In this document: positions 37,807 through 63,629 of the stretch, piece by piece
Numbering within the stretch: position 1 is the first letter of the stretch
How the letters are laid out: the number at the start of each line of letters is the position of its first letter
Source: Planctomycetia bacterium
Lineage (GTDB): Bacteria; Planctomycetota; Planctomycetia; Pirellulales; UBA7805
DNA: 64,000 nucleotides
Assembly: GCA_021413585.1 (NCBI GenBank)
Contig: JAIOQB010000278.1
Location: forward strand, 783 to 64,782
Direction: 5' to 3'
The notes under the pieces: model-generated
Database searches by the model: none
What the model was told of the DNA's origin: nothing
The model's input: only the letters and a program-made list of their open reading frames with translations
Made by a program: the position numbers and the translations under genes

Positions 37807-37871
37807 GGTTCACCTGTCTTGTGCAAAGCCGCATGCTCATAGCTCAACGCTCACAACTCAAAACTTCCCGC

Positions 37872-38834: not shown

Positions 38835-38853
38835 GGCTGCACCTTTCGCAAAA

Positions 38854-40191
<1,338 letters not shown>

Positions 40192-40287
40192 CCTGCACCC
40201 TTATTTCTGCAAAGTCGTACGGCAAAGTTTTGTATTTATTTCTTGTGTGTGCGTGCGTGGCGATTTTCAACGAGGACATTGCGCCTG

Positions 40288-41484
40288 TTACTTTTTTGCT
40301 TTGGCGGCGCCGCCCGACCACCAGCGGCCCAGCACACCCGATTGGCCGTTCTTGTGGTGTCCGTTTCCCGCGTGAGCGTGTTTTGGGGAATGGACGCTCA
40401 GGGCCAGACGCACCAGGCTGCGGGCGACCTTGGACGTGGGGCGTTCGATGACGACCGGCACTCCTTTGTTGTTGCCGGAGTTGATCGTGGCCGGATCGTC
40501 CGGCACATAGTGCGTCAGCGCCACGCCCAGCGCCTTCTCCGCCTTGCCAGCCGGCAATTCCTTGGGTTGGCCAAAGCGATTGACCACCACGCGGAGCTTC
40601 GCGTCGGCCACGCCCAGCCGGCCGACCTGATCGAGCAGCCGCTGCGCGCTGCACAGCGACATCATGTCCAGCCGCAGCGCCAAAAAGACGACGTCGGCCT
40701 GCACCAGCGCCGCCAATTGCTCGGGCCCCAATGAGCTATCAAGATCCATCACCGTAAACGGAAACAAGCTGCGCGACAGCGCCACCACTTGCCGCACGCC
40801 GGAGGCGGTGACTTGGGCGATCCCTTCCTCGCGGCTGGGGGCGGCCAGCAGTTGCACGCCCGAGTCGTGCTTCGTGAGCACCTGTTGGAACATGGCGGCG
40901 TCCATCCGCTCGCTCTTAAGACACAATTCGCCCAGCGTGTGCGTCGGCTTGAGATCCAGCAGCAGGGCCTGATCGCCGGCCGAAAGCCGCAGATCCAACA
41001 GCGCGGCGCGGCGATGCTTGATCGCCAGAGCGGCGGCAATGTTGACCGCCAGCGTGCTCGCCCCGCTCCCGCCGCCGCAGCCCAATATCCCGATCACCTG
41101 GCCCTGTTCGCCATCGGGTACCTGCTGCTTCGTTCGCAGGCGATTCAGCGCGGCTTCCAACTCGATTTCGACGTCGTCGAGATCGACGAACTCATGCGCC
41201 CCTTCGCGCAGCACCCGCAGGATGAACTTCGGATCGTCGGCGGCCCCCACGACGAGCATGATGCCCGCCACGCTGTGACGCAGTTCGGGTAGAACAGCCA
41301 ATGCCCGCTGCCGATCTTCGGGCACAACCAACATCACCAGGTCGTAGCGCGATCGGCTGGCGGCGTCGGCCGCCGCGTCGAGCGGGGTGATGTCGCCCGG
41401 GTCGCAATCCACGCCGCATCGCTGCGCGATGCTGCTAAGCTTGGCGCCGATCAGGTCGTTGTCAGTTACGACTAAGGCTCGCAT
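40288..41484 (-). CDS. tadZ: CpaE/TadZ-like pilus localisation protein (receiver-like N-domain plus MinD/ParA-like ATPase)
   Basis: 398 aa. N-terminal receiver-like fold (MRALVVTDND...). Atypical P-loop GILGCGGGSGASTLAVNIAAAL, as seen in TadZ/CpaE. Confidence 0.8.
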   Translation of the reverse strand: MRALVVTDNDLIGAKLSSIAQRCGVDCDPGDITPLDAAADAASRSRYDLVMLVVPEDRQRALAVLPELRHSVAGIMLVVGAADDPKFILRVLREGAHEFVDLDDVEIELEAALNRLRTKQQVPDGEQGQVIGILGCGGGSGASTLAVNIAAALAIKHRRAALLDLRLSAGDQALLLDLKPTHTLGELCLKSERMDAAMFQQVLTKHDSGVQLLAAPSREEGIAQVTASGVRQVVALSRSLFPFTVMDLDSSLGPEQLAALVQADVVFLALRLDMMSLCSAQRLLDQVGRLGVADAKLRVVVNRFGQPKELPAGKAEKALGVALTHYVPDDPATINSGNNKGVPVVIERPTSKVARSLVRLALSVHSPKHAHAGNGHHKNGQSGVLGRWWSGGAAKAKK

Positions 41485-41553
41485 CGATTCGTTTCCTCAA
41501 GTACGCGGCGCTGCGTCACATCGCTCAAAGGCATCGTGGTTCGCTGCAGGGGT

Positions 41554-42480
41554 CTAGTGCTGTTCCACGAGGATCACGCCGCGATCGTTGCCACGCAGCG
41601 TTTGAATGCTGCTGGTGGTCGACTGCGCCGGAGCGGGAACCTCCGCCGGTTTGGCGGCCGCTGCCGGGGCGGGATCTTCGGGCTTGGCCGGGGCGTTACC
41701 CAGGCCGCGGAACAACCCAGTGAAGGCGGACCAATCGGCGCCGCCCTTCGAGGCCCCTTCCTGGCTATAACGCAACTGGGCCATGGTGGCCGGGTTCGCC
41801 TTGCCGCTGCGGTGGTCGTCCGCGTTGCGGAGCGAGAGGTGCAGGTTACCCTTGTTCATCCCCAGGTCGAGCTTGGCCGCCTGATCGGGAGAAACAAGCA
41901 GCGTGGCGGTGGCCAGATCCTTGGTGTCGATTTTGTTGGTTTCCGGAGCATCGAGCACTTGATTGACCGCCAGCACTTCGATGTTCTGCAACAGCGTGGT
42001 GGTCACGCCGCCGCCCGATTTGTCGTCGGGCATCGAGTCGGTCATGGTCAGCAGGATGTCCACCTTGTCGCCGGGCATGATGAAGCCACCGCCGCCGGCG
42101 GCAACGTGCGACGTGCGGATCGTGAACGCCCGCATGCCGAAGGGAATCATCGCGGCCATGCCTCGCCCGGCGTCCTTGCTGGCCAGCTTCGCTTCCAGCA
42201 GCGGTTCGCCTTTGACCAGCGGCACGGTGGTCGTGCGACCGGCGGCGCGGGCGATGTCGGTTAGTGCTCCCGGCGGCAGCGCGGCGCTGGGCCACGGCCG
42301 AGTGGTCAGCGTTTCGGCCGACAGCACGGTGCCGCGGGAAATGTTGCCCGAGGCGATGACGATCTTCACGTCGTCCGCCTTACGGGTTTGCCCCTGGCCC
42401 GCAAGCTGGCTGACGCCCACCGCGGCCGAGCCGCCGCAGATGACCGCCAGAACGATCAAAATCATGGTGCGAACTTTCAT
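41554..42480 (-). CDS. cpaB: Flp pilus assembly protein CpaB/RcpC (SAF domain)
   Basis: ORF trimmed to ATG 42480 (MKVRTMILIVLAVICGGSAAVG). SAF-like region VKIVIASGNISRGTVL, then the RcpC-like region GDKVDILLT. Confidence 0.8.
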   Translation of the reverse strand: MKVRTMILIVLAVICGGSAAVGVSQLAGQGQTRKADDVKIVIASGNISRGTVLSAETLTTRPWPSAALPPGALTDIARAAGRTTTVPLVKGEPLLEAKLASKDAGRGMAAMIPFGMRAFTIRTSHVAAGGGGFIMPGDKVDILLTMTDSMPDDKSGGGVTTTLLQNIEVLAVNQVLDAPETNKIDTKDLATATLLVSPDQAAKLDLGMNKGNLHLSLRNADDHRSGKANPATMAQLRYSQEGASKGGADWSAFTGLFRGLGNAPAKPEDPAPAAAAKPAEVPAPAQSTTSSIQTLRGNDRGVILVEQH

Positions 42481-42580
42481 AGCATGCCTCACCGTAAAAA
42501 GAAGTTGCAGTGTGGGGAGCGGCCAGCGGCCGCGCACCGTAAGATTGCGGATCTCGTTCTATCGCCTGCCAGACTCTGTT

Positions 42581-43132
42581 CTATTGCCACCTGAGCCACA
42601 GAATAGTTCCCAATACTCCCACGGGCACCATCGCGCCGAACGGAATGACTCGCACGCGGCGGTCCGCGCCGGTCGAGAGCGTTTCGGCCAAATCGTCCTT
42701 GCCCACATGAACGCCCATCGCGGCGAAGCGTTGCACGATCAGCTTCAGCGTCAGCCAGCTCTCGCGAAATTTGCCGCGGACGATAATCATGGCCACGGCC
42801 ACCAGGCCGGCCACCAGCGCGCTGACCACGAACGCCACCACGGTTCCTTGCAAGCCGAGCCAAGCACCTACGCCCGCCATCAACTTCACGTCGCCGGCCC
42901 CCATCAGCCCCAGCAAGTGCGGCACGATCAACACGCCGAATCCAAACAGCGCGCCGAGCAGACTGGGGCCAATCCCCTGGCCGCCGGCGGCCAGACCGTG
43001 ATAGGCCAACCCGCTGATGAGCAGCGGAATCGTCAGCACGTTGTACACCCGGTACTTCCAAATGTCGGTCACCGCGGCGATGGAAGCCGCCAGCAGCGCG
43101 ACGGTCAGAGGGAGCCAGGTGATGTGTGCCAT
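42581..43132 (-). CDS. tadV: prepilin peptidase TadV/CpaA (A24 family, no methyltransferase domain)
   Basis: 183 aa polytopic protein. The two catalytic Asp contexts are AAVTDIWKYRV and GAGDVKLMAGVG. Confidence 0.85.
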   Translation of the reverse strand: MAHITWLPLTVALLAASIAAVTDIWKYRVYNVLTIPLLISGLAYHGLAAGGQGIGPSLLGALFGFGVLIVPHLLGLMGAGDVKLMAGVGAWLGLQGTVVAFVVSALVAGLVAVAMIIVRGKFRESWLTLKLIVQRFAAMGVHVGKDDLAETLSTGADRRVRVIPFGAMVPVGVLGTILWLRWQ

Positions 43133-43223
43133 GGAACGCGCTTCCTAACGAATCATTTGTCGCTAAACGACTTTTCTCAACGGCTTCTAATGCAGCGTGC
43201 AGCTATTGTCACCCACGGCCGCA

Positions 43224-43397
43224 TTACGGCAGCACGGCGTTGGTCGACGTGTAGGCCGCCTGAATCTTCGGGCCGATCAGCGCGATGGTGACCACGCAGC
43301 CGGCCACGATCAGCGCCAGCACGATGCCCAACTCCGTCACTTCCGCGGCTTTCTCGTCCGTGCAAAAACGCGTCGTCGCAGCAATCCACTTCGTCAT
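43224..43397 (-). CDS. flp: Flp family type IVb pilin (57 aa)
   Basis: Not in the ORF track because it is under 60 aa. Hand translation: MTKWIAATTRFCTDEKAAEVTELGIVLALIVAGCVVTIALIGPKIQAAYTSTNAVLP*. A T-run plus GAGAG lies upstream. Confidence 0.85.
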   Translation of the reverse strand: MTKWIAATTRFCTDEKAAEVTELGIVLALIVAGCVVTIALIGPKIQAAYTSTNAVLP

Positions 43398-43637
43398 TGC
43401 AAACTCTCTCGAAAAATGAACTACGTTTTTTTGAATAACTTTCGTCCGAGGTTCGCCGTCTGCAATCGATTCCCCCCGCGTCCCCTCAGGGCCCGAAGGC
43501 CCGTCGGGTAGCGTGGAAAACTGTTGCTGGCTCGACCGTGATGCAGCGCGTCGCGAGCGATGCAGCGCGTCGCGGCTTTGCCAGCAGCGCGGCGTTGCAG
43601 ACGGGGCGAAACTTGCCCGCCAAAACAGCCAGCGAGC

Positions 43638-43811
43638 TTACGGCAACGCGGCGTTGGTCGTGGTGTAGGCAGCCTTGATCTTCGGACCGATCAGGGCGAT
43701 GGTGACCACGCAACCGGCCACAATCAGCGCCAACACAATGCCCAACTCCGTCACTTCGGCGGCCTTCTCGTCCGCCACAAAACGCTTAGCCAAATTCATC
43801 CACATGCGCAT
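43638..43811 (-). CDS. flp: Flp family type IVb pilin (57 aa; alternative starts at 43805 and 43799)
   Basis: Not in the ORF track. Translation: MRMWMNLAKRFVADEKAAEVTELGIVLALIVAGCVVTIALIGPKIKAAYTTTNAALP*. TTTTTTTAAGGGAG lies upstream. Confidence 0.85.
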   Translation of the reverse strand: MRMWMNLAKRFVADEKAAEVTELGIVLALIVAGCVVTIALIGPKIKAAYTTTNAALP

Positions 43812-44009
43812 CTGGTCGCTCCCTTAAAAAAATGCGGAAACACAACTCGAACACACCATGCCGCGACCGCCGTCGCGGCGAAGTCAGCCCCGCTGCGTCG
43901 AGCAGCCAGGCTGAGAAACTCGCTTCGTCGGCAGCGACCTTTTGGGCGATGACCAGTGCGGCCACGCCAAAATCGCCGCTGCGGCGACAAAGTGTTCTAA
44001 TCAGTATGA

Positions 44010-44054
44010 TGGGAAAGACAGGAAATACAAGTAATGTGGGATAGCTGGGAATAA
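44010..44054 (+). promoter_or_regulatory. five in-register 9-bp units in the AT-rich island upstream of the flp-flp-tadV operon
   Basis: TGGGAAAGA, CAGGAAATA, CAAGTAATG, TGGGATAGC and TGGGAATAA at 44010, 44019, 44028, 44037 and 44046. CAGTATGA lies at 44002. The element CTGGGAATAAT recurs at 49989. Confidence 0.5.
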
Positions 44055-44197
44055 TATGACCGCTTACACCACTGTTAGTCGTAAAATGCTTTAATAACAA
44101 TACTTATGACGAAAATGTTAAGACTTCTTGACACTGAGATTTTGTTCATCAACTCTATGAACTTGACGCATTCATCCCAATTCAACTTTTGATGCCA

Positions 44198-44366
44198 ATG
44201 CCGCGCCGGTCGGGGACCGGCGGCTAACACCATTTTGCTTGTGAGCCGCTCCCCGACCGGCGCGTTTCGCAGCTGCGCGATGCTCTTCAGAGGGGAGCGG
44301 CATCCAACTATTTATTGGTGCGAACGATGCGCCGGTCGGGGACCGGCGGCTAACACCGTTTTGGCG
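44198..44366. repeat. REP-like repeats (two direct copies and one inverted partial copy)
   Basis: gcgccggtcggggaccggcggctaacacc occurs at 44203-44231 and 44329-44357. An inverted partial copy gccgctccccgaccggcgcg lies at 44245-44264. The core gccggtc-ggg-gaccggc is self-complementary. Confidence 0.75.
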
Positions 44367-44388
44367 TGCTGACGCTTTACGTTCCGCC

Positions 44389-46317
44389 TTACTTCACCAA
44401 CGCACCCTCGGTTGAACCGACGATGGTGGAGAAGATATCGGACAAGCGTTGCTGGTAGTCGGCCGGGTTGCCGGAGGCAACCGGGCTGATCTTCGGTCCG
44501 GTGGGATTGTTGGGATCCTGGACCGCGGTGCCGGAGAGACGGGCCATGCGGTCCATCATCGTTTGGTCGGAGGCCAGCCCAATCCCCACGGCGTATACGT
44601 GCCAATCCAGGGCCTGCATCATGCCGACCTGCATCATCACGGCGTTGCGTTCTTGATAATTATTATCGCTGCTGGTAAACCACTCGCCGTCCGGATTGTG
44701 CGTGGCATCGTAGCTGGTTTCGTAGTTTTGGATTGTCGTGTTGCTGCTCTGCTTGACGTTGACCACGCCGTCCGAAAGGTACACGACGACCTTATCGGCC
44801 CCCGGCCTGGCGCCGGTGGGATTCAAGGTGGGATCCAGTTGGTTCTTGGCCAGGATCAAACCGTTCTCGCCCGCCGTGCTGCTCTGGTCGTCCGCCACGG
44901 CCTGGTACGTGGTGCAGGCCTGCTTGACCGCGTTGTAGTCGCACGAGTTCACATTCAAAGGATACCGAACCACGGTATCGGCGGCCGTGTCGAACGTGAC
45001 CAGGGCCACGTGGTCCTTGGCGGATTCCGCCAGACCCGCATTCCGCTGGGCAATCGTGTCGATGGCGGCCATGATCCCCACGCGCGCGGCGTGCGTCGGC
45101 TGCTCGCGCGGCGGGAAGTTGAAGCCGTAGCCGGCGCTGGAAGGATCGGTATCCTGATGGTATGGGCAAAACGAACTGGCGGTGGACAACGGTGTGTAGG
45201 TTGAGCCCGTCACCACCCTGTTCCGACCGAAGTCCATCATGAATTGCACATAGGTCTGGTAGCCGAATTTGTTATAGAAGACGGTGGCCGCAGAACTAGT
45301 CAGCGAGGGCCACGCATCCGACGACGGATTGTCGGCCGACGAGATCCCATACGAATTCTGGTTCGCGGGCACACTGCCGGTGTAGTTGCTGTAGTTGGTC
45401 CGCTGTGCTGTGGTAAGCGTGTATGGCTGGATGATGTAATCCAGATACACTTCCCAATAGGCGTAGTTCGTCGTGCTGTTGGGAACCGGCTTGGCCAGCG
45501 GCATCACGGTGGCCAGTTGCGTGTCGATGATCCACTTGTAGCCCTTCTGCTTCCGTGTGGCCGCCGAGTCACTCGTGAGTATCTTGTACGTCGCGTTGAT
45601 CGTCGAGCCGCTGAGATACCCGCCGTTTCTCGTCAGGTTGTAGAACGCCTGGTTGTCCTGCGTTACGTTGCCGTTGCCCATGTATTGCAATGTGCCCGGA
45701 TAGGCGCCATAGCCAAAATCCGCGAAGACGTTGGTCATCATCGTGCTGCCGAGGTTGGGATATCCCGACGGGGCGTACTTCGAGTCGATGGCGGCAGTGG
45801 CCCAGATTTCCGTGTCGTTGTTCATCGACCCGGACAAGTCCATTACGAACACAATATCGCGCGGGTTGCGCACGGCGATCGACGTGGCGGTGACATTCGA
45901 TTGCGTCAGCCCCAAAATACCGGCAAAGCTCAGCGGGACCGGATTGCCGGTGGCTTGCGTTCGCGTGACGGTGACCTGGACCGCGTTCGTGGACGAATTA
46001 CTGGGAGTGAACGTCTTGGTGGAGGAGTTCCAGGTGCCGAGCTGCACGTTCTGGCTGGTGAGCACGTTGCCGTGGTTGGGATGATTCAAGTTGGCGTAGA
46101 GCTGGGCGGTGCTGGTCACCGTGGTGAGGTCGGGAATGTAGCGCACCGCGGCCAGGGCCGCCGCATCGGCGGTGGCTTGCAGTTGGGTGCGGACCAGCAC
46201 CGTGGTCCCCATGTCGATGGCACACGCCACCATCCCCAGCAAGACCACCAGCAACACCGCGGACAGCACCAGCAGGGCCCCACCCCGACAACGCTTCTTG
46301 GCCTTGAGACGTTTCAT
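44389..46317 (-). CDS. tadG: TadG-like pilus-associated protein with von Willebrand factor A domain
   Basis: ORF trimmed to ATG 46317 (MKRLKAKKRCRGGALLVLSAVLLVVLLGMVACAIDMG, a TadE/G-like N-terminus). MIDAS-type motif DIVFVMDLSGSMNNDTE. Confidence 0.8.
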   Translation of the reverse strand: MKRLKAKKRCRGGALLVLSAVLLVVLLGMVACAIDMGTTVLVRTQLQATADAAALAAVRYIPDLTTVTSTAQLYANLNHPNHGNVLTSQNVQLGTWNSSTKTFTPSNSSTNAVQVTVTRTQATGNPVPLSFAGILGLTQSNVTATSIAVRNPRDIVFVMDLSGSMNNDTEIWATAAIDSKYAPSGYPNLGSTMMTNVFADFGYGAYPGTLQYMGNGNVTQDNQAFYNLTRNGGYLSGSTINATYKILTSDSAATRKQKGYKWIIDTQLATVMPLAKPVPNSTTNYAYWEVYLDYIIQPYTLTTAQRTNYSNYTGSVPANQNSYGISSADNPSSDAWPSLTSSAATVFYNKFGYQTYVQFMMDFGRNRVVTGSTYTPLSTASSFCPYHQDTDPSSAGYGFNFPPREQPTHAARVGIMAAIDTIAQRNAGLAESAKDHVALVTFDTAADTVVRYPLNVNSCDYNAVKQACTTYQAVADDQSSTAGENGLILAKNQLDPTLNPTGARPGADKVVVYLSDGVVNVKQSSNTTIQNYETSYDATHNPDGEWFTSSDNNYQERNAVMMQVGMMQALDWHVYAVGIGLASDQTMMDRMARLSGTAVQDPNNPTGPKISPVASGNPADYQQRLSDIFSTIVGSTEGALVK

Positions 46318-46395
46318 ATTGCACCTCGTGAGATTGAAGCCGATGTGATGCACAAAATGTTTGCCGTGCCCCGGCTTGAAATCACTGTTTTCTAG

Positions 46396-48414: not shown

Positions 48415-49845
48415 TTACAACAGGTCATATTTATGCAGCTTCTTGTACAACGTCACCCGGCTGATTCCTAAATGCCGGGCGGCCAGCGAGCGGTTGTTGC
48501 CGCTCTGGTCCAGCGCGTTGCGCAACAGACGGAACTCCACGTCAAAACGGGCTTCGTCCAGCTTGGATGCCACCGGCCGCTGCGGTTCGACGCTGCCCAC
48601 GTGGCTTCCCTGCTGGCGCACCGCCGCCGGCAAATCCTCCAGATCGACCGGACGGCCAGGGTACAACGCCACGGCGCGTTCCATCACGTTGCGCAACTCG
48701 CGGATATTGCCCGGCCAGGAATAATCCTCGATCGCGGCCAGCGCCTGCGGCGAAATCGCCGGCGGCAGGCAATCGTGCAACGCCGCCACGTCCGCCAGAA
48801 AACGGTTCGCAAACGGGACAATCACCGAGCGCCGCTCGCTCAGTGGCGGCAACCGTAGCGTCACCACGTTGACGCGATAAAACAGGTCCGAGCGAAATTG
48901 CCCCGCCGCCACCTGCTCTTCCAGCGAACGCGTGGCGGTCACGATGATCCGGGCAGTCAGCGGCACCGGGCGATCGCTGCCGACCGGTTCGAACACCTGT
49001 TCGTCGATCGCCCGCAACAACTGGGCCTGAGCGGCCGGCGGCAAGGCGTCGACGTCGTCCAGCAGAATCGTCCCATTCTGGGCAGCGGAAAGCTTGCCGG
49101 CGCGATCCGCTTCCACTCCGCCAAATGAACCCTTTACATGGCCAAATAATTCGCTCTCGACCAGACTGGGACTAAGCGCGCTGCAATTGATCGCCACAAA
49201 CGGTTCGTTCGGCCGAGCCGACAATTCATGAAACAATCGGGCCAGGTGGGTCTTGCCCGTTCCCGTTTCACCGGTCAGCAGCACGGGCGTGGCCAGCGAT
49301 GCCAGTTGACGCATCTGCTCGACGATGCCGGCCATCTCTTCGGACTTGTCGTACAGAAACGGCGGCTGGGAACCGATGCTGCACAAACCCGCATTGAGCC
49401 TGGCGGCGTTCGGAAACGCGCCGTAGTACGACTTGAACGTCAGCATGTCGACGACAAACGCCAGGCGAAGCAGATCCAACGGCCGCGCCAGATAGTCCGC
49501 CGCGCCGTGTGCCAGCAGCTTGACCGCCTGCGGAGTCTCATAGCGATCGCAGATCGGCACCGCCGCGGTACTGCGTCCCGAGCTGCGGCACTGGTCGATC
49601 AAATGCAGTGCTTGTGCTTCGTCGAGGGCTGGGGAAGGCTCGGTTGCCGTGTCCTTGCTGTCGGCGCCGGCAACGTGCATCAGCATGACCGCCGGTCGGG
49701 CGGTCTGAAGCTGGCGCTCTGCATCGGCCACACGATCGACGACGTTCAATCGGCAGCGGCCCACGGAAACCATGGCCTGCTCGACCGCGGCGCGTAGCGC
49801 AATATCGCTGGTAACCAGCAGTGCAGTCGCAGGCATGATAAACAA
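48415..49845 (-). CDS. NtrC-family AAA+ transcriptional activator (receiver-like N-domain, sigma-54-interaction-type AAA+ domain, Fis-type HTH)
   Basis: Walker A LLTGETGTGKTHLARLFH, then ESELFGH. GSFGGV occupies the GAFTGA position. C-terminal HTH NRSLAARHLGISRVTLYKKLHKY. Confidence 0.85.
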   Translation of the reverse strand: MFIMPATALLVTSDIALRAAVEQAMVSVGRCRLNVVDRVADAERQLQTARPAVMLMHVAGADSKDTATEPSPALDEAQALHLIDQCRSSGRSTAAVPICDRYETPQAVKLLAHGAADYLARPLDLLRLAFVVDMLTFKSYYGAFPNAARLNAGLCSIGSQPPFLYDKSEEMAGIVEQMRQLASLATPVLLTGETGTGKTHLARLFHELSARPNEPFVAINCSALSPSLVESELFGHVKGSFGGVEADRAGKLSAAQNGTILLDDVDALPPAAQAQLLRAIDEQVFEPVGSDRPVPLTARIIVTATRSLEEQVAAGQFRSDLFYRVNVVTLRLPPLSERRSVIVPFANRFLADVAALHDCLPPAISPQALAAIEDYSWPGNIRELRNVMERAVALYPGRPVDLEDLPAAVRQQGSHVGSVEPQRPVASKLDEARFDVEFRLLRNALDQSGNNRSLAARHLGISRVTLYKKLHKYDLL

Positions 49846-50016: not shown

Positions 50017-50492
50017 AATACAGCGAAAAAGCACTTAAGTCGTTATTTAATATCAACTTAAAGCATAAAATAACGCCTGTGAAACATCCTTATTGATCCA
50101 TAAAATCGTTAAATTCTACGCTTTGCCCGCACACATCCCTTAATCACCCACTTGCGCCGCTTCACTCTAGACACGATTCGGGCAGCAAAAGCCACGCTCC
50201 AAACGGCTCAACCGCCCGCGATGGCTCCCCCACAAAACTGAAGCCCGCGTGGCATAACCGCTACAGATTGCCTGAGCGGAACAACCCGCACTTCGCGATC
50301 TCGTTTTTCCGGATCTGCCGAGCTATCGCTCTGTGCCGGCATTTAGTTCTGTGCGGGTCATGCCGAAGAAACACGTTGTTCCCCCGCAGGTGCGCCGCTG
50401 CGCAGAGCGGGGGGGAGAACGTCGTACATCACTGCGACCAAATCGCAATCGCTTAGCAACAAGACCCACCAAGCCGCCAGCGTCCACCAACT

Positions 50493-52313
50493 TTGAGGCG
50501 ATCCATGGTTCCGGCCGTCAGAATGCAAGTTGATCTTCGTGGCGTTTGTCTGGCCAGCGCGCTGGCACTCGTTGTGGGACTGGGCGCTGCGCCGCAAACG
50601 GCCCATGCGCAGCAGGGAGAGAATCCCTCGGTCGGCGGCTTGCCGACCACGCTCCCTCCGGTGCCACGGCAGAATCCGCGCCCCGCGCAAGGCGACAAGG
50701 CCGACCAACGCTGGCAAACCACACGACCGGAGAAGGACAGCTCGCCGACCGCGTCGTTCATCGAATCGCTCAAAGGGAACGACGCCACGCTGCAAGTGAC
50801 GGTAGGCCAGGGGACGGTATTGACCACGCGCGTCCCGATCGAAAAGGGAACCATCGCGGTCGGCGACCCGTCCGTGATCGACTTTGACGTGCTGGTGCCG
50901 AATACCCGCATGATACGGCTCATCGGCCGGCGTCCCGGCGTGACGGACCTCTCCATTGCCACCGCGGACGGCCAGATCCACAACTTCCAGGTTCAGGTGG
51001 TTTACGACCTCGACCTGTTGCGGGCCCAACTCCGGCAGTTGTTCCCCGACGCCCAGATCAAGCTCGGCCAGGTCCGCGATCACCTGGTCGTTGAAGGCCA
51101 GGCTCGCAGCGCGGCCCAGGTTTCTCAGATCATGGAAACCCTGCGGGCGTACCTGACCTCGGTCCATGCCGCGGCAGGGCAGGGGGGGGGCGGCACGGGA
51201 GGGTCGGTCCCGCCGGCTCCGGCCTCACCTAACGGCGGCGGCAACACCACCGTGGTTACCGGCCCCAGCGCTTCAACCTTCCTGGGTCAGCAGAACGGCG
51301 TTGGCACGGGCAACCTCGGGGCGCCGCAGGTGATCAACCTGTTGCGAGTTCCCGGCCCGCAGCAAGTCATGTTGCAGGTTCGCGTGGCGGAACTCAACCG
51401 AACGGGTCTGCGTGAAATCGGGGCCGACCTCGGGTACATCAACCCCAGGACCGGCACGATCCTTGGCACTCAGATCAGCAACGCCAACGTAAGTGCCCTG
51501 GCGACGCTCACCGGCGGCGCCCTGACCGGCGCGGCCGCCATGACCAACAGCCCGAAGACCACCGCGTTTGGCATTTTTCCGTCCGCCGACTTCGATATCT
51601 TCCTGCGGGCGTTGCGTGAAAACACGTTGCTCACCGTGTTGGCCGAACCGAACCTGGTGGCGATGAACGGACATCGGGCCAGCTTCCTCGCCGGTGGTCA
51701 GTTCCCCGTGCCGGTGCCGCAAGGCGCGGGCGGCGTGACGAACAACGTGACGATCGAGTTTAAGGACTTCGGTGTGCAACTCGACTTCGTCCCCGTGATT
51801 CTCGAAGACGGCGCCATCCGGTTGGAAGTCACACCGGAAGTCAGCTCCATCGACTTCGCCTTAGGGACCACGCTGGTCCAAGGCGGGTCGCCGGTTCCCG
51901 GTTTGAACACCCGCAAAGCCACCACCACCGTGGAAATCCGCGAAGGAGAGACGTTGGCCATCGCCGGTTTGCTGCAAGTGCAGATCGACGCCAAGACCGA
52001 CCGCATCCCGGGCCTGGGTGACTTGCCGTACATCGGTCCGATGTTCAGCAACACGTCGCACAAGCGTCAGGAGAAAGAGTTGCTGATTCTGGTGTCGCCG
52101 CAGTTGGTCAGCTCGATTCCTTCCGATCAGGTCGGCCCGTCGCCGGGCATGGACGTGCTCGACCCAAACAATCTGGAGTTCTACCTGATGAACCGGATCG
52201 AAGGACGCACCGGCCGCGACTACCGTTCCACCACTACCTGGGATGACTGCCAGGCGTGGATGCTGCGGCTGGAACACTCCAACGCCTGCGGCCCCGTCGG
52301 ATTCTCCGAGTAA
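50493..52313 (+). CDS. rcpA: Tad pilus outer-membrane secretin CpaC/RcpA
   Basis: 606 aa with a signal peptide. Pilus-formation N-domain (LQVTVGQGTVLTT...VGDPSVIDFDV). Secretin core LAEPNLVAMNGHRASFLAGGQFPVP...IPGLGDLPYIGPMF...ELLILVSPQLV. Confidence 0.9.
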   Translation: MRRSMVPAVRMQVDLRGVCLASALALVVGLGAAPQTAHAQQGENPSVGGLPTTLPPVPRQNPRPAQGDKADQRWQTTRPEKDSSPTASFIESLKGNDATLQVTVGQGTVLTTRVPIEKGTIAVGDPSVIDFDVLVPNTRMIRLIGRRPGVTDLSIATADGQIHNFQVQVVYDLDLLRAQLRQLFPDAQIKLGQVRDHLVVEGQARSAAQVSQIMETLRAYLTSVHAAAGQGGGGTGGSVPPAPASPNGGGNTTVVTGPSASTFLGQQNGVGTGNLGAPQVINLLRVPGPQQVMLQVRVAELNRTGLREIGADLGYINPRTGTILGTQISNANVSALATLTGGALTGAAAMTNSPKTTAFGIFPSADFDIFLRALRENTLLTVLAEPNLVAMNGHRASFLAGGQFPVPVPQGAGGVTNNVTIEFKDFGVQLDFVPVILEDGAIRLEVTPEVSSIDFALGTTLVQGGSPVPGLNTRKATTTVEIREGETLAIAGLLQVQIDAKTDRIPGLGDLPYIGPMFSNTSHKRQEKELLILVSPQLVSSIPSDQVGPSPGMDVLDPNNLEFYLMNRIEGRTGRDYRSTTTWDDCQAWMLRLEHSNACGPVGFSE

Positions 52314-57136: not shown

Positions 57137-57731
57137 GACCGACGACCATATTTTCCAGATCGTGCTGTTCGCCGGCTGTGCCGTGATGCTGCCGATTGGG
57201 TTGTACTATCGGATCCGGTCACAAGCAACGGGCGAGAAACTTGACCGGAGGCAAGAGGGGCTGTTCGTTCTGCTCACGCTGCGGCCGATGGGCGTCGTGC
57301 GAATGCTCGGACTGATCGCCTACATGGTCAACCCCGCCTGGATGGCGTGGTCGTCGTGCCCGTTGCCGACGTGGCTCCGCTGGCTGGGCGTGCCAATCGG
57401 CGCGGCGGCCGCGACCGGTGTCATCTGGACGTTCCATACCCTGGGGCCAAACCTTACCGACACGGTGGCCGTGCGGCAACATGCCACGCTAGTGACCAGC
57501 GGCCCGTATCGGTGGATTCGCCACCCGTTTTACGCGTCGTTCGCACTGGCCGCGACTGCCGATTCGCTGGTGACGGCCAATTGGTTCCTGGCCCTGACCG
57601 GAATATTGACGTTCAGTCTGATCGTGTTGCGGATCCGAGCGGAGGAAGCACGGCTACTCGCCCGCTTTGGCGGCGCGTATCGGAGCTACATGCGCACAAC
57701 CGGCCGGTTCTGGCCGCGCGGGGGCCTTTAG
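57135..57731 (+). CDS. isoprenylcysteine carboxyl / phospholipid methyltransferase family membrane protein
   Basis: ORF 56538..57731 trimmed to ATG 57135 (MTDDHIFQIVLFAG...). C-terminal signature LVTSGPYRWIRHPFYASFAL...EEARLLARFGGAYRSY. Confidence 0.8.
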   Translation: MTDDHIFQIVLFAGCAVMLPIGLYYRIRSQATGEKLDRRQEGLFVLLTLRPMGVVRMLGLIAYMVNPAWMAWSSCPLPTWLRWLGVPIGAAAATGVIWTFHTLGPNLTDTVAVRQHATLVTSGPYRWIRHPFYASFALAATADSLVTANWFLALTGILTFSLIVLRIRAEEARLLARFGGAYRSYMRTTGRFWPRGGL

Positions 57732-57896
57732 CGGATTGCCGTCAGTAGTCGAGCGCATCCGTGGCGCTAGCACTGGCAAAGCCAGTGGCGAACACGCCGG
57801 GCCGAGTATCCATCTGACACCCTCACCCGGACCCTGGCTCTCTCAGAGAGGGAAACTGCAGCAGATTATCTCCTGCCGATAGCCCATAGCTGACAG

Positions 57897-58235
57897 CTAC
57901 AAAGCACTATCCCCCGTCTCGCGGGTGCGGATCCGGATGCCGTCGGCCAGGGCGGTGACGAAGATCTTGCCGTCGCCGATCTTGCCGGTGCTGGCGGCGG
58001 AGAGGATGGCGTCGATCACCTTCTGGGCGTTGGCCTCGGTGGCGGCGATCTCGATCTTCACCTTGGGGACGAAGTCCACTTTGTATTCCGCGCCGCGGTA
58101 AGTTTCGGACTGTCCCTTCTGGCGACCAAAGCCGCGGACTTCCGTGATGGTCATGCCGTACAATCCCATGGCGACCAGGGCCGCTTTGATCTCTTCGACT
58201 TTGTGGTGGCGAACGATGGCTTCAATTTTTTTCAT
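57897..58235 (-). CDS. glnK: P-II nitrogen regulatory protein GlnK
   Basis: 112 aa: MKKIEAIVRHHKVEEIKAAL...TEVRGFGRQKGQSETYRGAEY (T-loop Tyr present)...GDGKIFV. Lies downstream of amtB. Confidence 0.95.
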   Translation of the reverse strand: MKKIEAIVRHHKVEEIKAALVAMGLYGMTITEVRGFGRQKGQSETYRGAEYKVDFVPKVKIEIAATEANAQKVIDAILSAASTGKIGDGKIFVTALADGIRIRTRETGDSAL

Positions 58236-58534
58236 GGCTGTTGCCTTCTATATTTCCTGGATATTGGTTGCGTGCCTGAGACACGAAAATTGAATGAGCA
58301 GAATGGCGCTAGCCACCGGTCTTCGCGGAGGGCCAAGCGCATCGAATCACAGGTGAACCGCCGGAATCCCGGCGACACGACCCCGACTTGGGCCGGCCAG
58401 GCGGTAAGCCGGCCCAAGTCTTTGGGGCGTTCCCCTGGCAAGGCGGTGCCAGAAGTTCTTCGTGTGTGTCGCCGCGTTTCGCCTTGACCGCCGGCACCGC
58501 GATGTCCGTCGCGGCGCCGGCGATGTCAGGCCGA

Positions 58535-60427
58535 TCATGCCTTGTTGTCGGGAGACATTCCCGCCGGCGCGGCCCAGTTCGAGATCATGTACTCGGGGTA
58601 AGCCGAAATACCGTGCTCGTGCAGGTCCAAGCCGTAACGCTCACCTTCTTCAGAGACACGCAGGGTACCCGTGGCTTTGACGGCGTACATGACGATCAAC
58701 CCGACGACCAGGGTCGCCCCCGTAATGATCCCGCTGCCGACAGCTTGTGCTTTGAGCACCTGCATTCCGCCGCCGTAGAACAGTCCGGTCAGCTTGTCGT
58801 TGCTCAACAGCGATACCACGGGATGACTGCCGTCGGCCGAGTACTCTCCGCTGGCAAACAGACCTAGCGACAAGGTTCCCCAAATGCCGCAGATGCCGTG
58901 AACGGGCACGGCACCGATCGGATCGTCGATTCGCAGGAACTCCAGCAACTCGACCCCGGCCCACACGACGACGCCAGCGATGGCACCCAGTGCGACCGAT
59001 CCGGTTGGACTGACCCAATAGCAGGGACAGGTGATGGCTACCAACCCAGCCAGGAATCCGTTGACCGTGAAGCTCACGTCCCACTTCTTGCTGGGAATGT
59101 AAGCCGCGATCATCGCGGTCAGCCCGCCGGCACAAGCGGCCAGCGTGGTGTTGGCCGCGACGCGGCCGATCCCTTCAAAGTCCATGGCCGACAATGTGCT
59201 GCCAGGATTGAAGCCGTACCAGCCGAACCACAAGATCAAACCGCCGCTGGCCGCGATGACCAAGTCGTGGGGCATCATTGGGCCGCCGCCGTCTCGTTTG
59301 AACTTTCGACCCAAGCGAGGGCCTAGTGCGATCGATCCAGCCAGGGCCACAAAGCCGCCGATGGTATGCACCACCGTTGAACCGGCAAAGTCGTGGAAGT
59401 TCATTCCCAGGCTTTCCAGGAACATTCCCTTGCCACCCATCGTGGCCAAGAAGCCGTCCGGTCCCCAGCACCAGTGTCCGAGAATCGGATAAATAAAGCC
59501 CGACACGCAGAAGCTGTAGAGCAAGTCGCCGACAAACCCGGTTCGCCCGATCATGGCGCCCGAGGTAATCGTCGAGCAGGTGTCAGCGAACGCAAACTGG
59601 AACAAGAAATGCGCCAAAAACGCCACGCCGGTCGCTTCGTAGGTGTGGGGCGCATTCTGCAAGAACCACCACGCCTTACCGGGCAAGAATGTTCCCCCTG
59701 CATCGTTACCCCATCCGATCCAGCCATTGCCGTGACCGAACATAAAGGCATAACCGAACGCATAGAACAGCAAGCCGCAAAGGCAGGTGTCGACGATGCA
59801 TTCCATCAGCACGTTGACCGTCTCGCGCGACCGGCAAAAACCAGCTTCGAGCATGGTGAAGCCAACCTGCATGCCGAACACGAGAAACGCCGCGACCAGC
59901 ACCCACACGGTGTTCAATGGATTGACGACGTCCCCCCCCTTCGTTGCAGTGTAAGCCGCCGCAATCGCAACGGCAGGGTCTGGTGCCGGCGCGTCGGCAG
60001 GTTTCGCCTCGGTGGCCGTCTTCGCATCCGCCGGTTTGGCGTCTTCCTTCTTGGCGTCGTCAGGTTTCGCGTCGGTGGCCGTCTTGACTTCGGCCGGCTT
60101 GGCATCTGCTTTGGCATCCACCGGTTTGGCATCAGCCTTCGCGTCGGCTGGCTTGGCATCCTTGGCATCCGCCGGTTTCGCATCGACGGCCTTCACCTCG
60201 GGCTTGGCGTCTTCCGCAAACACCGTGGTGCTGGTCAGCTTCGGCACCAGCGAGATGATATGCGGGATGCCAATCGCCAACGCCAGCATCAAGCCAATGC
60301 CCAGCGCCTTGCCCGCCGCCAACAGGGCGCCGTAGCGGCGCCACTGTGGATCCTTTAGCCGCGTGGCCAGCCTCGCGCACTTTTGTCCCAGTGAGATTCG
60401 TTCTGTCGCCCGCCTGCTGTTGTTCAT
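58535..60427 (-). CDS. amtB: ammonium transporter AmtB with N-terminal signal-anchor and Asp/Ala/Lys/Pro repeat extension
   Basis: ORF 58535..60655 trimmed to ATG 60427 (MNNSRRATE..., AGGAG upstream). Amt core motifs AFLVFGMQVGFTMLEAG, DFAGSTVVH and VHGICGIWG. Residues ~75-150 read DAKPADAKDAKPADAKADAKPVDAKADAKP... Confidence 0.9.
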   Translation of the reverse strand: MNNSRRATERISLGQKCARLATRLKDPQWRRYGALLAAGKALGIGLMLALAIGIPHIISLVPKLTSTTVFAEDAKPEVKAVDAKPADAKDAKPADAKADAKPVDAKADAKPAEVKTATDAKPDDAKKEDAKPADAKTATEAKPADAPAPDPAVAIAAAYTATKGGDVVNPLNTVWVLVAAFLVFGMQVGFTMLEAGFCRSRETVNVLMECIVDTCLCGLLFYAFGYAFMFGHGNGWIGWGNDAGGTFLPGKAWWFLQNAPHTYEATGVAFLAHFLFQFAFADTCSTITSGAMIGRTGFVGDLLYSFCVSGFIYPILGHWCWGPDGFLATMGGKGMFLESLGMNFHDFAGSTVVHTIGGFVALAGSIALGPRLGRKFKRDGGGPMMPHDLVIAASGGLILWFGWYGFNPGSTLSAMDFEGIGRVAANTTLAACAGGLTAMIAAYIPSKKWDVSFTVNGFLAGLVAITCPCYWVSPTGSVALGAIAGVVVWAGVELLEFLRIDDPIGAVPVHGICGIWGTLSLGLFASGEYSADGSHPVVSLLSNDKLTGLFYGGGMQVLKAQAVGSGIITGATLVVGLIVMYAVKATGTLRVSEEGERYGLDLHEHGISAYPEYMISNWAAPAGMSPDNKA

Positions 60428-60745
60428 CACATGCTCCTGAGGATTGAGTCTGAAAGTCTCTGCGTGATTTCGCCCGTTCACAGTCAACGCGCCCGCGTCT
60501 CTCGTGTGTCGTCGCCCCGCCGATTTACAATCCGCTCCGTGTCCGCCACTGAAGCGGGCAGTGGGTGTTTGCAATTTGCATACCGAAGTTGCCGCGATGC
60601 GCGCAGAACATCGCGCGGAGTCACAACTACTGTGTGCGTGGCACGTTGAAGGCACAGAGAATGCGCCGTGCGCAGAAAATCTCAGAACCGCAACCGAAAA
60701 TTCTTGCTAGCTGACAATGCTCCGCCTGCCGGGCAAATGTGCAAA

Positions 60746-60793
60746 TTTATCGGATATTTATGATACTTATGGAATACTTATGAGTATTTACCG
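60746..60793 (+). promoter_or_regulatory. AT-rich island with five phased TTTAT/TTTAC direct repeats between kdpE and amtB
   Basis: TTTATC (60746), TTTATG (60757), CTTATG (60766), CTTATG (60777) and TTTACC (60787). The TTAT/TTAC core spacing is 11, 9, 11 and 10 bp. Confidence 0.5.
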
Positions 60794-60816
60794 TAAGTGA
60801 AGCTTTTGTGTGCGAA

Positions 60817-61521
60817 TTACTCGCTCACCAGCCGGTAGCCGACCCCTTGCTCGGTCAAAATCAGCCGCGGCTGCGCGGGGTCGACCTCGATCTTGCGGCG
60901 CAGGCCAGCCATGAAAACGCGCAGATGCTGTGTGCTCAGTGCCCGCTTCGGCCCCCACACTTCTTGCAGCAGAAAATGGTGCGTCACCACCTGGCCGCAG
61001 TGTTGCACCAGCGCCACCAGCAGTTTGTACTCGATCGGCGTGAGATGCACTTCCACCTGATTGGCAGACACCTTGCGGGCAGTCTGATCTACCTTGAGGC
61101 CCCCCGATTCAAACACCGGCGGGTCGCCCCCCGAGCCCCCTTTTGCCCGCCGCAGCGCCACGCGCACCCGGGCCAGCAACTCACCCGAGCTGAACGGTTT
61201 AGTCAAGTAATCGTCGGCCCCGGAGTCCAAAGCCGTGATTTTTTGCACGTCCTGGTCGCGAACCGACAGAATAATAATCGGCGCCTTCAGCCATTGCCGC
61301 AACCGCCGCAGTACTTCCTGTCCGTCCATGTCCGGCAAGCCCAGGTCCAGCAGCACGAGGTCCGGCGGAGCCTGCGCGGCTAAGGTCAGCGCCTGCTGCC
61401 CTGTCCCCGCCTCCTGAATGCGATAGCCGGAGCCGGACAGAAACGTGCGCAAGAACCGGCGCATCGGCACTTCGTCTTCGACTAAGAGCAGCAGCGGCAG
61501 GGGAGGGGGGGAGGCGGACAT
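60817..61521 (-). CDS. kdpE: OmpR-family response regulator, KdpE-like
   Basis: ORF trimmed to ATG 61521 (MSASPPPLPLLLLVEDE). Receiver motifs DLVLLDLGLPDMDG and LSVRD...DDYLTKPF. DNA-binding domain VHLTPIEYKLL...LRVFMAGLRRKIEVDPAQPRLILTEQGVGYRL closely matches the KdpE pattern. Confidence 0.85.
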   Translation of the reverse strand: MSASPPPLPLLLLVEDEVPMRRFLRTFLSGSGYRIQEAGTGQQALTLAAQAPPDLVLLDLGLPDMDGQEVLRRLRQWLKAPIIILSVRDQDVQKITALDSGADDYLTKPFSSGELLARVRVALRRAKGGSGGDPPVFESGGLKVDQTARKVSANQVEVHLTPIEYKLLVALVQHCGQVVTHHFLLQEVWGPKRALSTQHLRVFMAGLRRKIEVDPAQPRLILTEQGVGYRLVSE

Positions 61522-61632
61522 GTGTTGTATTCTCCCTCTCCCACCGGCAGAGGGCCGGAGTGAAGGCGTCACCGAGTGAGGGTGTATGGAATCCACCGTT
61601 TTTACTGCAAACGGCCACCATGGTACAAGCGA

Positions 61633-62132
61633 TCAATTCTCCGCCGGCACGTGCAGCTCGTCCCACTTGAGCGCCGGCCCAGCCTTCGCGCAGGGCAACG
61701 TCACCACAAATTCCGCGACCCCTTCGGGCCGATTCGCCGCGCTGATCGAGCCAAAGTGAGAAAGTATTGCGTTTCCGTCGACGTGAGCGTGAACGACGGA
61801 TGGACGAAGAAGAAGTCGAACACCAACACCGACAAGATCGCCATCGTGATCGCCGGCCCGCGGCCAAACAGCGCGGCCACCAGCACCACGCCCGCCAGAT
61901 AGATCATCACAATATTGGCGTCCGTCAGCCCCAGCGAGTGACTGACGGAGCCGAACAGGCAGCACACCGTCAATAAGGCGATCGTCGCCAGATAGCGCTG
62001 CCATGACTTCAGCGGACCGCGGCGGGCAGGCGTGGCATTCGCCGCGGGTGCGTTGGTGTTGCTCGCGGCGTCTGAGTTGAGATGCTGCGCGGCATCGCGT
62101 ATGGAAGATTGACTTGTCATGGGTGGCCGCAC
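61633..62132 (-). pseudogene. kdpD: kdpD remnant: DUF4118 membrane domain fused out of frame to the last ~35 codons of the HATPase domain
   Basis: Frame 1 (61701..62132) reads ...ANIVMIYLAGVVLVAALFGRGPAITMAILSVLVFDFFFVHPSFTLTSTETQYFLT, then junk and a stop. Frame 2 continues from the same point as HFGSISAANRPEGVAEFVVTLP...*, matching the KdpD C-terminal HGG.I.A.NRPEGGA.F.VTLP. No HisKA, GAF or N-terminal KdpD/Usp domains are present. Confidence 0.65.
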
Positions 62133-62250
62133 ACAAAGGGCTCGGCGTCAGGCAGCACGCCGGCAAGCACCTATTTTAGCACGTGAAGCTCGCGATAGCA
62201 TTCGCGTAGCGACCGTAGCACAGTCCAAACCGGATCGGTATCGTAAAGGG

Positions 62251-63048
62251 ATGGCCTCCATACCCCCCAATCCCAAACGCCGCTGGTTTCAATTCAGCCT
62301 GCGGACGTTGCTGATCCTGACGACGATCATCGCCATCTGGCTCGGCTGGTGGTCGTACAAGGCACGGCAGCAGCGGGCGGCGGTGGCGGCGCTGCAAGCT
62401 GCTAAGGGCTTTGTCGATTACGATTTCAGCCTGCCGTGGACAGGCGGAATGGATGACCCGCCGAAATGTCCGAAGTGGTTGCTGGTCCACCTTGGGGACG
62501 ATTATTTTGCCAGTGTCCGAGGTCTCAACATCCGCGACTCGATATTAACCGTCTCTGACCTGAAACATATCGAGAATCTTTCCGCTCTGCACAGCCTGAA
62601 ACTTGACAAAACAGGCGTCACCGACACGGACCTGAAACATTTTGAGAATCTGATCGCTCTGGAAGAACTCTCCATCACCACCACGCAAGTCACCGACGCT
62701 GGACTGAAGCACCTCAGAAACATGTCTTCGCTACAGCGGCTAAGCCTCAGTGACACGTACGTCACTGACGCCGGATTGGAACAGCTCGAAAATCTGACCG
62801 CTCTGCGCGAGCTGAACCTTGACCACACGCTAGTCACTGACAAAGGTCTGGAACACATTCAACCTTTGGCTGGACTAAAAGAACTCTCCCTTATTTGCAC
62901 GCAAGTTTCCGACGTTGGACTGGCACACCTAAAGCACCTGTCCGCTCTTCAAGAACTCAATCTTATCGGCACGAACGTCACCGATGCGGGTGTAGCACGG
63001 TTGCAGAAGTGGCGGCCGAAGTGCAAGATTAAACTCTGGCCGCGATGA
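62251..63048 (+). CDS. membrane-anchored leucine-rich-repeat protein
   Basis: ORF trimmed to ATG 62251 (MASIPPNPKRRWFQFSLRTLLILTTIIAIWLGWW). Seven ~24-aa LRRs of the type L..L..L..L.L..T.VTDAGL. Confidence 0.8.
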   Translation: MASIPPNPKRRWFQFSLRTLLILTTIIAIWLGWWSYKARQQRAAVAALQAAKGFVDYDFSLPWTGGMDDPPKCPKWLLVHLGDDYFASVRGLNIRDSILTVSDLKHIENLSALHSLKLDKTGVTDTDLKHFENLIALEELSITTTQVTDAGLKHLRNMSSLQRLSLSDTYVTDAGLEQLENLTALRELNLDHTLVTDKGLEHIQPLAGLKELSLICTQVSDVGLAHLKHLSALQELNLIGTNVTDAGVARLQKWRPKCKIKLWPR

Positions 63049-63629
63049 CCGACCCATCTCCCAAACCCAAACGCCGCTGGTTTCAATACCGGCTGCAGAC
63101 GCTGTTGATCCTTACGGCGATCATCGCCGTTGCCATGACTTGGTGGTCGCTGAGAGTTCGGCCGCAGCAGAATGCAGTGGCGGCATTAAGGCAAATCGGC
63201 TGTCAGTTCGAATATGACTCCAGGCTGCCTTTTACAGGCGGAATGAAAGACCCGCCGAAATGGCCGACGTGGTTGTTGGATGCGGTTGGCGTCGATTATT
63301 TCGGCACAGTGAAGTACGTTATATTTCTTGCCGGGGCAACAGATACCGACTTGAAACCGCTTCAAGCCTTGACCACCGTGCAAGGACTCTGCTTGATGAA
63401 CGGAAACATCAGCGACGCCGGATTGGAACAACTGAAAAACCTTACTGCCCTGAAAGGACTCAACCTCTATGACACGCAGGTCACCGATGCCGGCATCGAA
63501 CACCTCAAAGGCCTGACGGCACTGCGAGAGCTTGAACTCGAAGAAACGCAGGTCACCGACGCTGGGGTGGCTCGGCTGAAGAAATTACTGCCAAAGTGTG
63601 ATATCCACCACTACCACCCTCCGCACTAA
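63045..63629 (+). CDS. membrane-anchored leucine-rich-repeat protein (shorter tandem paralog)
   Basis: ATGA overlap with the upstream gene. MTDPSPKPKRRWFQYRLQTLLILTAIIAVAMTWW. Shares FTGGM.DPPK.P.WLL and the C-terminal VTDAGVARL.K..PKC with its neighbour. Confidence 0.8.
   Translation: MTDPSPKPKRRWFQYRLQTLLILTAIIAVAMTWWSLRVRPQQNAVAALRQIGCQFEYDSRLPFTGGMKDPPKWPTWLLDAVGVDYFGTVKYVIFLAGATDTDLKPLQALTTVQGLCLMNGNISDAGLEQLKNLTALKGLNLYDTQVTDAGIEHLKGLTALRELELEETQVTDAGVARLKKLLPKCDIHHYHPPH

Follow-up and report, generated by a model that had tools for sequence, protein, structure and literature searches.

In Escherichia coli the response regulator KdpE binds a site defined as TTTA(T/C)A-N5-TTTA(T/C)A, and the box 5' of kdpFABC is TTTATA-N5-TTTACA (PMC3264566). 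In actinobacteria the orphan OmpR-family regulator GlnR is reported to activate amtB-glnK-glnD (PMC10235972); proteobacterial glnK-amtB is a NtrC/sigma-54 operon; and Ks-Amt5 and Sd-Amt1 are Amt-fused ammonium sensors (PMC5764959, PMC11152129). The stretch considered here, which is called the window and covers 64,000 nucleotides of contig JAIOQB010000278.1 from a Planctomycetia bacterium, carries an array of five phased half-sites between the gene for a KdpE-derived response regulator and the ammonium transporter operon amtB-glnK. To judge from sequence comparison, this array is probably the operator of a KdpE paralogue dedicated to amt, situated within a composite sigma-54 enhancer. No description of a KdpDE-like system linked to amt, or of a planctomycete amt promoter, was found in the searchable literature, the coverage of which is limited.

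Like the E. coli KdpE box (PMC3264566), the array is made of AT-rich 6 bp direct repeats with a TT-A core and an 11 bp period. However, there are five half-sites rather than two, their orientation to the target gene is reversed, and where the E. coli box adjoins a sigma-70 -35 box, they lie approximately 190–235 bp 5' of a predicted sigma-54 start. The presumed target is amt-glnK instead of kdpFABC, and the regulator has H in place of Y191, the equivalent of a base-contacting residue. With the proteobacterial NtrC/sigma-54 system the window has in common the operon itself, a GG-N10-GC promoter, and an upstream 17 bp TGC-N11-GCA dyad; it differs in that a conserved array of OmpR-family regulator type abuts the dyad and in that there is usually one clear dyad. 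GlnR, too, is an OmpR/PhoB-family regulator at an ammonium transporter operon that acts via multiple direct-repeat boxes, and the window regulator is likewise without a kinase. GlnR is not derived from KdpE, however, has sigma-70-type promoters and other boxes, and is ancestrally an orphan, whereas the window regulator owes this status to a lineage-specific kinase deletion. The likeness to Ks-Amt5 and Sd-Amt1 is in the coupling of an Amt module to a signalling kinase, but here the genes are separate, the kinase descends from KdpD and carries a membrane domain of its own, and a sensing role is speculative.

The half-site array 5' of amtB

On the plus strand the half-sites are TTTATC at 60746, TTTATG at 60757, CTTATG at 60766, CTTATG at 60777, and TTTACC at 60787, separated by the spacers ggata, ata, gaata, and agta. 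Read toward amtB, on the minus strand, they are GGTAAA (60792–60787), CATAAG (60782–60777), CATAAG (60771–60766), CATAAA (60762–60757), and GATAAA (60751–60746). If the register is read as TTAYNN, the TTA core is invariant across all five. The GC content falls to 0.30 at 60750–60799, against 0.56–0.68 in the flanks. An earlier note on this DNA had described five phased TTTAT/TTTAC repeats, spaced 11, 9, 11, and 10 bp, about 320–365 bp upstream of amtB and just downstream of a kdpE-like gene. The sequence bears this out: the array spans 60746–60792 with exactly this spacing of half-site starts, 319–366 bp 5' of the amtB ATG (60427), and a gap of 24 bp separates it from the regulator stop codon (60817–60819).

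The array is far beyond what chance would produce. A chain of five NRTAAR sites on the same strand in steps of 9–11 bp occurs once in the window; when the window is shuffled 200 times with dinucleotides preserved, chains reach two at most, and in 5000 shuffles of the 71 bp AT-rich patch alone a chain of three, the longest, is seen once. When up to three mismatches are allowed, the 17-mer YTTATGRNATAYTTATG has matches only at the array, two against an expected 0.21.

In its TT-A core and its direct-repeat period of about 11 bp, the half-site type agrees with the defined KdpE site. TTTATG also occurs in some of the KdpE-box-like matches at about the expected position in kdp promoters of other phyla (seven loci, from our own pattern search), so that the KdpE-type character claimed for the half-sites stands. 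Candidate KdpE boxes read toward kdp, both in these seven loci and in the upstream regions of three planctomycete kdpF genes. A tentative planctomycete KdpE box, YTTAAC-N5-TTTRAY toward kdpF, was not used as evidence of a half-site difference; three kdpF regions are too few, and only the orientation of the boxes is therefore used.

An antisense promoter directed toward the regulator gene was considered and rejected. A -10-like element is lacking, the array and the regulator stop codon are from approximately 24 to 150 bp apart in those loci where the two are adjacent, and in L001 and L087 the regulator gene and the array are not neighbours.

Conservation of the array and of a sigma-54-type promoter

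Relatives were sought by scanning genome and metagenome collections with the regulator, and the loci found were classified by tblastn. Planctomycete loci are of two kinds. In the canonical kind, which includes L009–L030, L092, L094, L103, and L166–L168 with Pfam support, the order is kdpFABC, full-length kdpD, and kdpE. In the amt-type loci the order is a short kinase, the regulator, amt, and usually then glnK, the short kinase having the domains DUF4118-GAF-HisKA-HATPase without the N-terminal domain of KdpD. The first scan gave the window, L001, L002, L003-5, L006, L007, L008, and L087 as amt-type, and L099 by inference; L169–171 and the P0049 contig were found later. The 12 amt loci that are compared are not phylogenetically independent. 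Most of the loci are from genome bins of the Pirellulales or Planctomycetaceae.

All 12 have [C/T]ATAA[A/G] half-sites 5' of amt and directed toward it, at approximately 158–211 bp upstream of a conserved sigma-54 -24/-12 element. Counted from the GG of that element, the half-site starts in the window are at 208, 198, 187, 178, and 167 bp. In L007 they are at 211, 179, and 168 bp, in L171 at 211, 200, 179, and 168, in L169 at 200, 179, and 168, in L170 at 202, 179, and 170, in L087 at 201, 180, and 169, in L003 at 198, 177, and 166, and in L006 at 189, 168, and 157. The array of L001, the closest relative (CATAAAgatttCATAAAcggCATAAAaatgcCATAAA; 189, 178, 169, and 158 bp), has the 11/9/11 spacing of the window. 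Between neighbouring half-sites 11 bp is the commonest spacing (10 cases), and the helical phase of the half-sites is conserved (Rayleigh p approximately 0.003–0.004). The proximal half-site lies on average 168 bp from the GG (standard deviation 10), and the GG lies approximately 90 to 300 bp from the amt start codon.

In an alignment of six of these regions conservation is confined to the array, the sigma-54 element, and the Shine-Dalgarno sequence, the rest of the intergenic DNA having diverged. A census of 6-mers in nine regions found CATAAA, TCATAA, and ATAAAT in six regions each, where approximately 0.7–0.9 would be expected, and all are strongly strand-biased. AGCATT, AAGATT, CTGCGC, and CAGTTG are enriched as well. 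Of these AAGATT is the spacer of adjacent half-sites, while the other three vary in position; AGCATT is found downstream of the array in seven of the nine regions (2.0 expected). CTGCGC is strand-biased, occurs in 8/9 related regions, and is often just upstream of the -24 element.

A profile hidden Markov model of the array plus the adjoining dyad (described below), built without the window, matches the window at 60767–60725 (E=0.004) and L001 (E=0.1). Over 1.56 Mb the same profile otherwise matches only its own source loci, all upstream of amt. This sequence includes all the kdp loci and the second amt copies, each of the latter with a sigma-54 promoter of its own, and none of them gives a match.

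The amtB promoter in the window is most likely of sigma-54 type. A -24/-12 element, CGGTATGCAAATTGCA, is located at 60570–60585 on the minus strand (GG 60584–60583, GC 60572–60571), approximately 145 bp 5' of the amtB ATG, which would put the transcription start near 60560, about 130 nt before the ATG. The pattern YGGYAY-N5-TTGCW has two matches in the window where 1.1 are expected, and the single match is thus not significant alone, but GGYAY-N5-TTGC is present toward amt in all 12 orthologous upstream regions. Between the array and this element there is also a 19 nt direct repeat, GCGATGCGCGCAGAACATC and GCGCCGTGCGCAGAAAATC (60594–60612 and 60663–60681), 69 bp apart.

Just 2 bp downstream of the proximal half-site is a 17 bp dyad, TGCACATTTGCCCGGCA (60727–60743; TGC-N11-GCA). 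Across the loci it is mostly TGCC-N9-GGCA, and its frame recurs in 10/12 loci, at 158–162 bp or 149/150 bp from the sigma-54 GG on the upstream side, against a background of 0.4 per kb. NtrC sites have the format TGCACC-N5-GGTGCA. The dyad is a candidate upstream activating site for an NtrC-type enhancer-binding protein, as required by sigma-54. There is an enhancer-binding protein gene (Sigma54_activat and HTH_8 domains) at 48415–49845 on the minus strand, which would indicate that the organism uses sigma-54; rpoN is not in the window. The intergenic DNA beside this gene has hexamers like those of the array in a weak cluster without phasing (50034–50069).

The regulator clade and its kinase

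The regulator is encoded at 60817–61521 on the minus strand and belongs to the OmpR/PhoB family, with a PF00072 receiver domain (1.2e-28) and a PF00486 Trans_reg_C winged helix (3.2e-21). Its best NCBIfam model is the KdpE equivalog NF007820, at 248.8 bits, which is below the cutoff of 325; MtrA is next at 186 bits. It can be aligned over its full length with E. coli KdpE (PDB 4KNY, E=4.8e-69) and in that alignment retains R193, R200, and T215, which KdpE needs for DNA binding (PMC3264566). It is 73% identical to a planctomycete KdpE from a kdpFABCDE operon, and in a neighbour-joining tree without bootstrap the amt-linked regulators form a single clade nested among planctomycete KdpEs.

This clade has its own signature at the head of recognition helix alpha-8, which is H-Y-L-R in the canonical proteins (H190 and Y191 in E. 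coli) and Q-H in the window regulator. Position 190 is Q in 11/11 sequences of the amt clade and H in 29/29 canonical sequences; position 191 is H in 10/11 and Y in 29/29, respectively. KdpE Y191 corresponds in structure to PhoB T194, which is among the four residues that contact bases (PMC3264566). All 29 of the H-Y regulators in the alignment adjoin a KdpD N-terminal domain, most of them also kdpB or kdpC in the available flank, with three complete kdpFABC. Regulators of the amt clade, on the other hand, are never beside kdpFABC in the loci examined. Among 120 database homologues the signature is Q-H in 42 and H-Y in 54.

As a prospective test, three previously unexamined Q-H regulators and one Q-Y regulator were picked by signature alone. 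Amt and P-II genes are downstream in all four. The three of these loci for which DNA is available have arrays at 200/179/168, 202/179/170, and 211/200/179/168 bp from the sigma-54 element. In three of the four there is also an Amt gene upstream, which ends within approximately 15 bp of the kinase start or overlaps it. On the equivalog cutoff, Y191, linkage to kdp, and the orientation and position of the putative operator, the window system falls outside KdpE proper.

The kinase gene of the window is an internally deleted remnant. Its 5' part, at 61749–62132 on the minus strand, encodes the DUF4118 membrane domain (Pfam DUF4118; the best NCBIfam match is to KdpD residues 379–482), and residues 55–140 of the orthologue in L002 align at 62006–61749 by tblastn. 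The 3' part, at 61633–61758 on the same strand and identified by tblastn and the list of open reading frames, retains the last 37 or so residues of the HATPase_c region (orthologue residues 524–560 at 61758–61648). Both ends of the gene survive, joined out of frame, and approximately 1.15 kb or 383 codons are gone between them, taking GAF, HisKA, and most of HATPase_c. The deletion may be real or may be an assembly artefact of the genome bin. In other loci where the gene is complete in the available DNA the short kinase is undisrupted, save in L001, where it is in two reading frames.

There is no homology to kdpB, kdpC, or the KdpD N-terminal domain anywhere in the window, and the observations that the cognate kinase gene is destroyed and that kdpFABC are missing were thus correct. 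The proposal built on them, that a KdpE-like regulator has been rewired onto the amt operon, holds in part. Both the regulator clade and the array are linked to amt-glnK in 12 loci, but this linkage is not a by-product of the loss of kdpFABC and the kinase here, as the amt-linked system is, on these comparisons, an older, conserved, and paralogous one with a short kinase of its own. Comparison of the loci indicates that kdpDE was duplicated in the course of planctomycete evolution, that the kinase of the duplicate lost the KdpD N-terminal domain, and that the system came to be upstream of amt-glnK.

In L003, L087, L169, L170, and the P0049 contig a second Amt gene, of 510–550 aa, runs up to or into the start of the KdpD-like kinase gene (2529–5694 in L003, 1282–4310 in L087, 2810–5997 in L169, and 268–3527 in L170, with a gap of approximately 15 bp in L170). 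The resulting order is Amt-kinase-regulator-Amt-PII. The overlap or abutment of these genes suggests that the Amt and the kinase may be a sensing pair; the window has no Amt gene of this kind ahead of its kinase remnant.

Where the regulator and amt have become separated, the array has stayed with amt. In L001 (10794–14047) two transposase genes (Transposase_mut and DDE_Tnp_1) are between the regulator and amt, and the amt-proximal array and sigma-54 element are intact despite these. In L087 there is one extra gene. An acidobacterial locus, L047 (Candidatus Acidoferrum, 656–5660), has glnK-amt followed by genes for a short DUF4118 kinase and for a regulator resembling KdpE. It was rejected as an instance of the same system, its helix signature being G-S and no array being present; here a Kdp-like system may have become associated with amt independently.

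Possible role of the array

Given a sigma-54 promoter and an abutting dyad of NtrC format, the regulator is probably a co-regulator of an enhancer rather than a sigma-70 activator of the classical KdpE kind. One or two dimers of the phosphorylated regulator, arranged head-to-tail, would bind the phased [C/T]ATAA[A/G] half-sites, which are on the same side of the DNA some 158–211 bp upstream of the -24 element. An NtrC-type enhancer-binding protein would occupy the 17 bp dyad, 2 bp from the proximal half-site, and occupancy by the regulator could then modulate the binding or oligomerisation of this protein and, through it, transcription of amt-glnK.

Co-activation at low external ammonium is the favoured sign of regulation, by analogy with KdpDE, which switches on a high-affinity K+ pump at low K+, and because NH4+ mimics K+. 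Steric repression would be just as compatible with the 2 bp that separate half-site and dyad. Since the kinase is deleted here, the regulator is an orphan unless it is phosphorylated from elsewhere, for instance by a canonical KdpD or by acetyl phosphate, and absent such a phosphodonor the window array is probably under-used. A bolder proposal, by analogy and decidedly tentative, is that the KdpDE duplicate is a sensing path for external ammonium, in which the kinase reads NH4+, possibly via the upstream Amt, and the regulator is an obligatory partner that nucleates or blocks the NtrC-type activator on a single-dyad enhancer. Were this so, amt-glnK would be under a hybrid OmpR-family/sigma-54 control joining external ammonium with internal nitrogen status.

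Several points weigh against the array being the operator of the amt-dedicated regulator within a sigma-54 enhancer. The orientation opposite to that of the E. coli kdp promoter, which had been correctly pointed out in the earlier note, is conserved in 12/12 amt loci, all of them running counter to the KdpE boxes. OmpR-family regulators cannot themselves activate sigma-54, so that the role of the regulator would have to be indirect, and such an arrangement is uncommon. The array is also far upstream, at approximately -190 to -235 from the predicted start. The two loci with the closest AmtB relatives, L001 and L002, have no exact dyad, and in L002 the array does not keep the helical phase either. 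There is no array upstream of the kinase-operon starts in the two loci examined for it (L169 and L170), and hence no sign of autoregulation to confirm the pairing of regulator and motif. The window has the most complete array of all, yet its kinase is dead, which would fit a recent deletion, an assembly artefact, or another binder. Finally, binding is deduced from sequence comparison, over 12 loci that share ancestry and a regulator tree that is unbootstrapped.

The most serious of the alternatives, although we consider it unlikely, is that another protein, either nucleoid-associated or bending or a nitrogen regulator, binds the array and aids the sigma-54 enhancer, the KdpE-like system being linked by synteny or acting elsewhere. 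A constant distance from the sigma-54 element, and a constant helical phase, are what would be expected of an architectural element; the orientation opposite to canonical KdpE boxes and an array that is intact though the kinase is deleted also speak for another binder. However, 11 bp direct repeats with a TTTAY core are what marks the binding of OmpR/PhoB-type winged-helix dimers, of KdpE especially, and the composite element is found only beside amt in loci with this regulator clade and is absent at second amt copies with their own sigma-54 promoters. An integration host factor (IHF) site in particular was rejected by eye, as the consensus WATCAANNNNTTR does not fit and the array is beyond the presumed enhancer site as seen from the promoter, not in the interval between the two. 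That same position argues against a protein-free, intrinsically curved AT-rich segment that shapes the enhancer loop, since looping gains nothing there. Curvature would account for A/T-rich motifs that recur every 10.5 bp or so on the same side of the helix and keep a constant distance to the promoter, but what is conserved is the strand-biased hexamer [C/T]ATAA[A/G] and not A-tracts in general, and L170, L171, and L008 have discrete half-site pairs with unconserved, GC-containing spacers; we regard this explanation as very improbable.

It is also improbable, if less so than curvature, that the regulator binds the array to drive a separate upstream promoter of sigma-70 type with a long leader, in tandem with the sigma-54 promoter as for glnAp1/glnAp2 of E. 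coli. Tandem sigma-70 and sigma-54 promoters do have precedent in nitrogen control, most loci have TTGCA or TTGCC resembling a -35 box after the proximal half-site, and the enrichment of AGCATT downstream of the array would agree with such a promoter. Against this, a sigma-70 scan of 60300–61000 gave no promoter-like site, the position of AGCATT differs between loci, and TTGCC is part of the conserved 17 bp dyad, not of a hexamer-spacer-hexamer arrangement. The half-sites also face the wrong way compared with the boxes of the three planctomycete kdp regions and of the other phyla, and an independent promoter would not need the conserved distance from array to sigma-54 element. That the patch is a chance AT-rich stretch, or a terminator or 3' UTR (untranslated region) of the regulator gene, might be suggested by its start 24 bp past the stop codon, but is effectively refuted by the conservation data. 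Besides the failure of shuffled sequence to reproduce the array, the patch folds as RNA no better than shuffled sequence (z = -0.45), a terminator scan gave three terminator-like matches all outside the array, an Rfam search of 57500–62500 found no match at E up to 1, and in L001 and L087 it is beside amt and not the regulator gene that the array is found.

If the array is indeed an operator of the amt-dedicated regulator, the locus would be a case of a two-component system changing jobs, a K+ pair having been duplicated, having lost one sensor domain, having changed at one base-contacting position of the recognition helix, and having become attached to a NH4+ transporter. The promoter design, with an OmpR-family operator abutting a sigma-54 enhancer, would be unusual, and it would be the first cis-regulatory model for planctomycete nitrogen uptake found in the searchable literature. 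The half-sites, the dyad, the -24/-12 element, and the signature residues are all defined at base resolution.

The genes downstream of the array are amtB (58535–60427, minus strand; 630 aa), which matches Pfam Ammonium_transp (1.4e-109) and TIGR00836 (387.8 bits, above cutoff), and glnK (57897–58235, minus strand), which matches Pfam P-II (3.5e-29), while the NCBIfam P-II models score below their cutoffs. AmtB has an N-terminal extension of approximately 165 aa (59930–60427, minus strand), consisting of a predicted membrane helix followed by a low-complexity Asp/Ala/Lys/Pro repeat (DAKPADAK...), and the AmtB orthologues of L001, L002, and L087 have similar extensions. On the opposite strand, immediately upstream of the kinase remnant, are two tandem, overlapping leucine-rich-repeat paralogues (62119–63048 and 63045–63629), with a common N-terminal motif, KRRWFQ...LLILT, that resembles a membrane anchor. 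The enhancer-binding protein gene adjoins a Tad/Flp-type pilus cluster (36883–46353 and 50493–52313) with T2SSE, two T2SSF, TadE/G-like, and secretin genes. The window also contains a giant open reading frame of 4086 aa at 22676–34936 on the minus strand.

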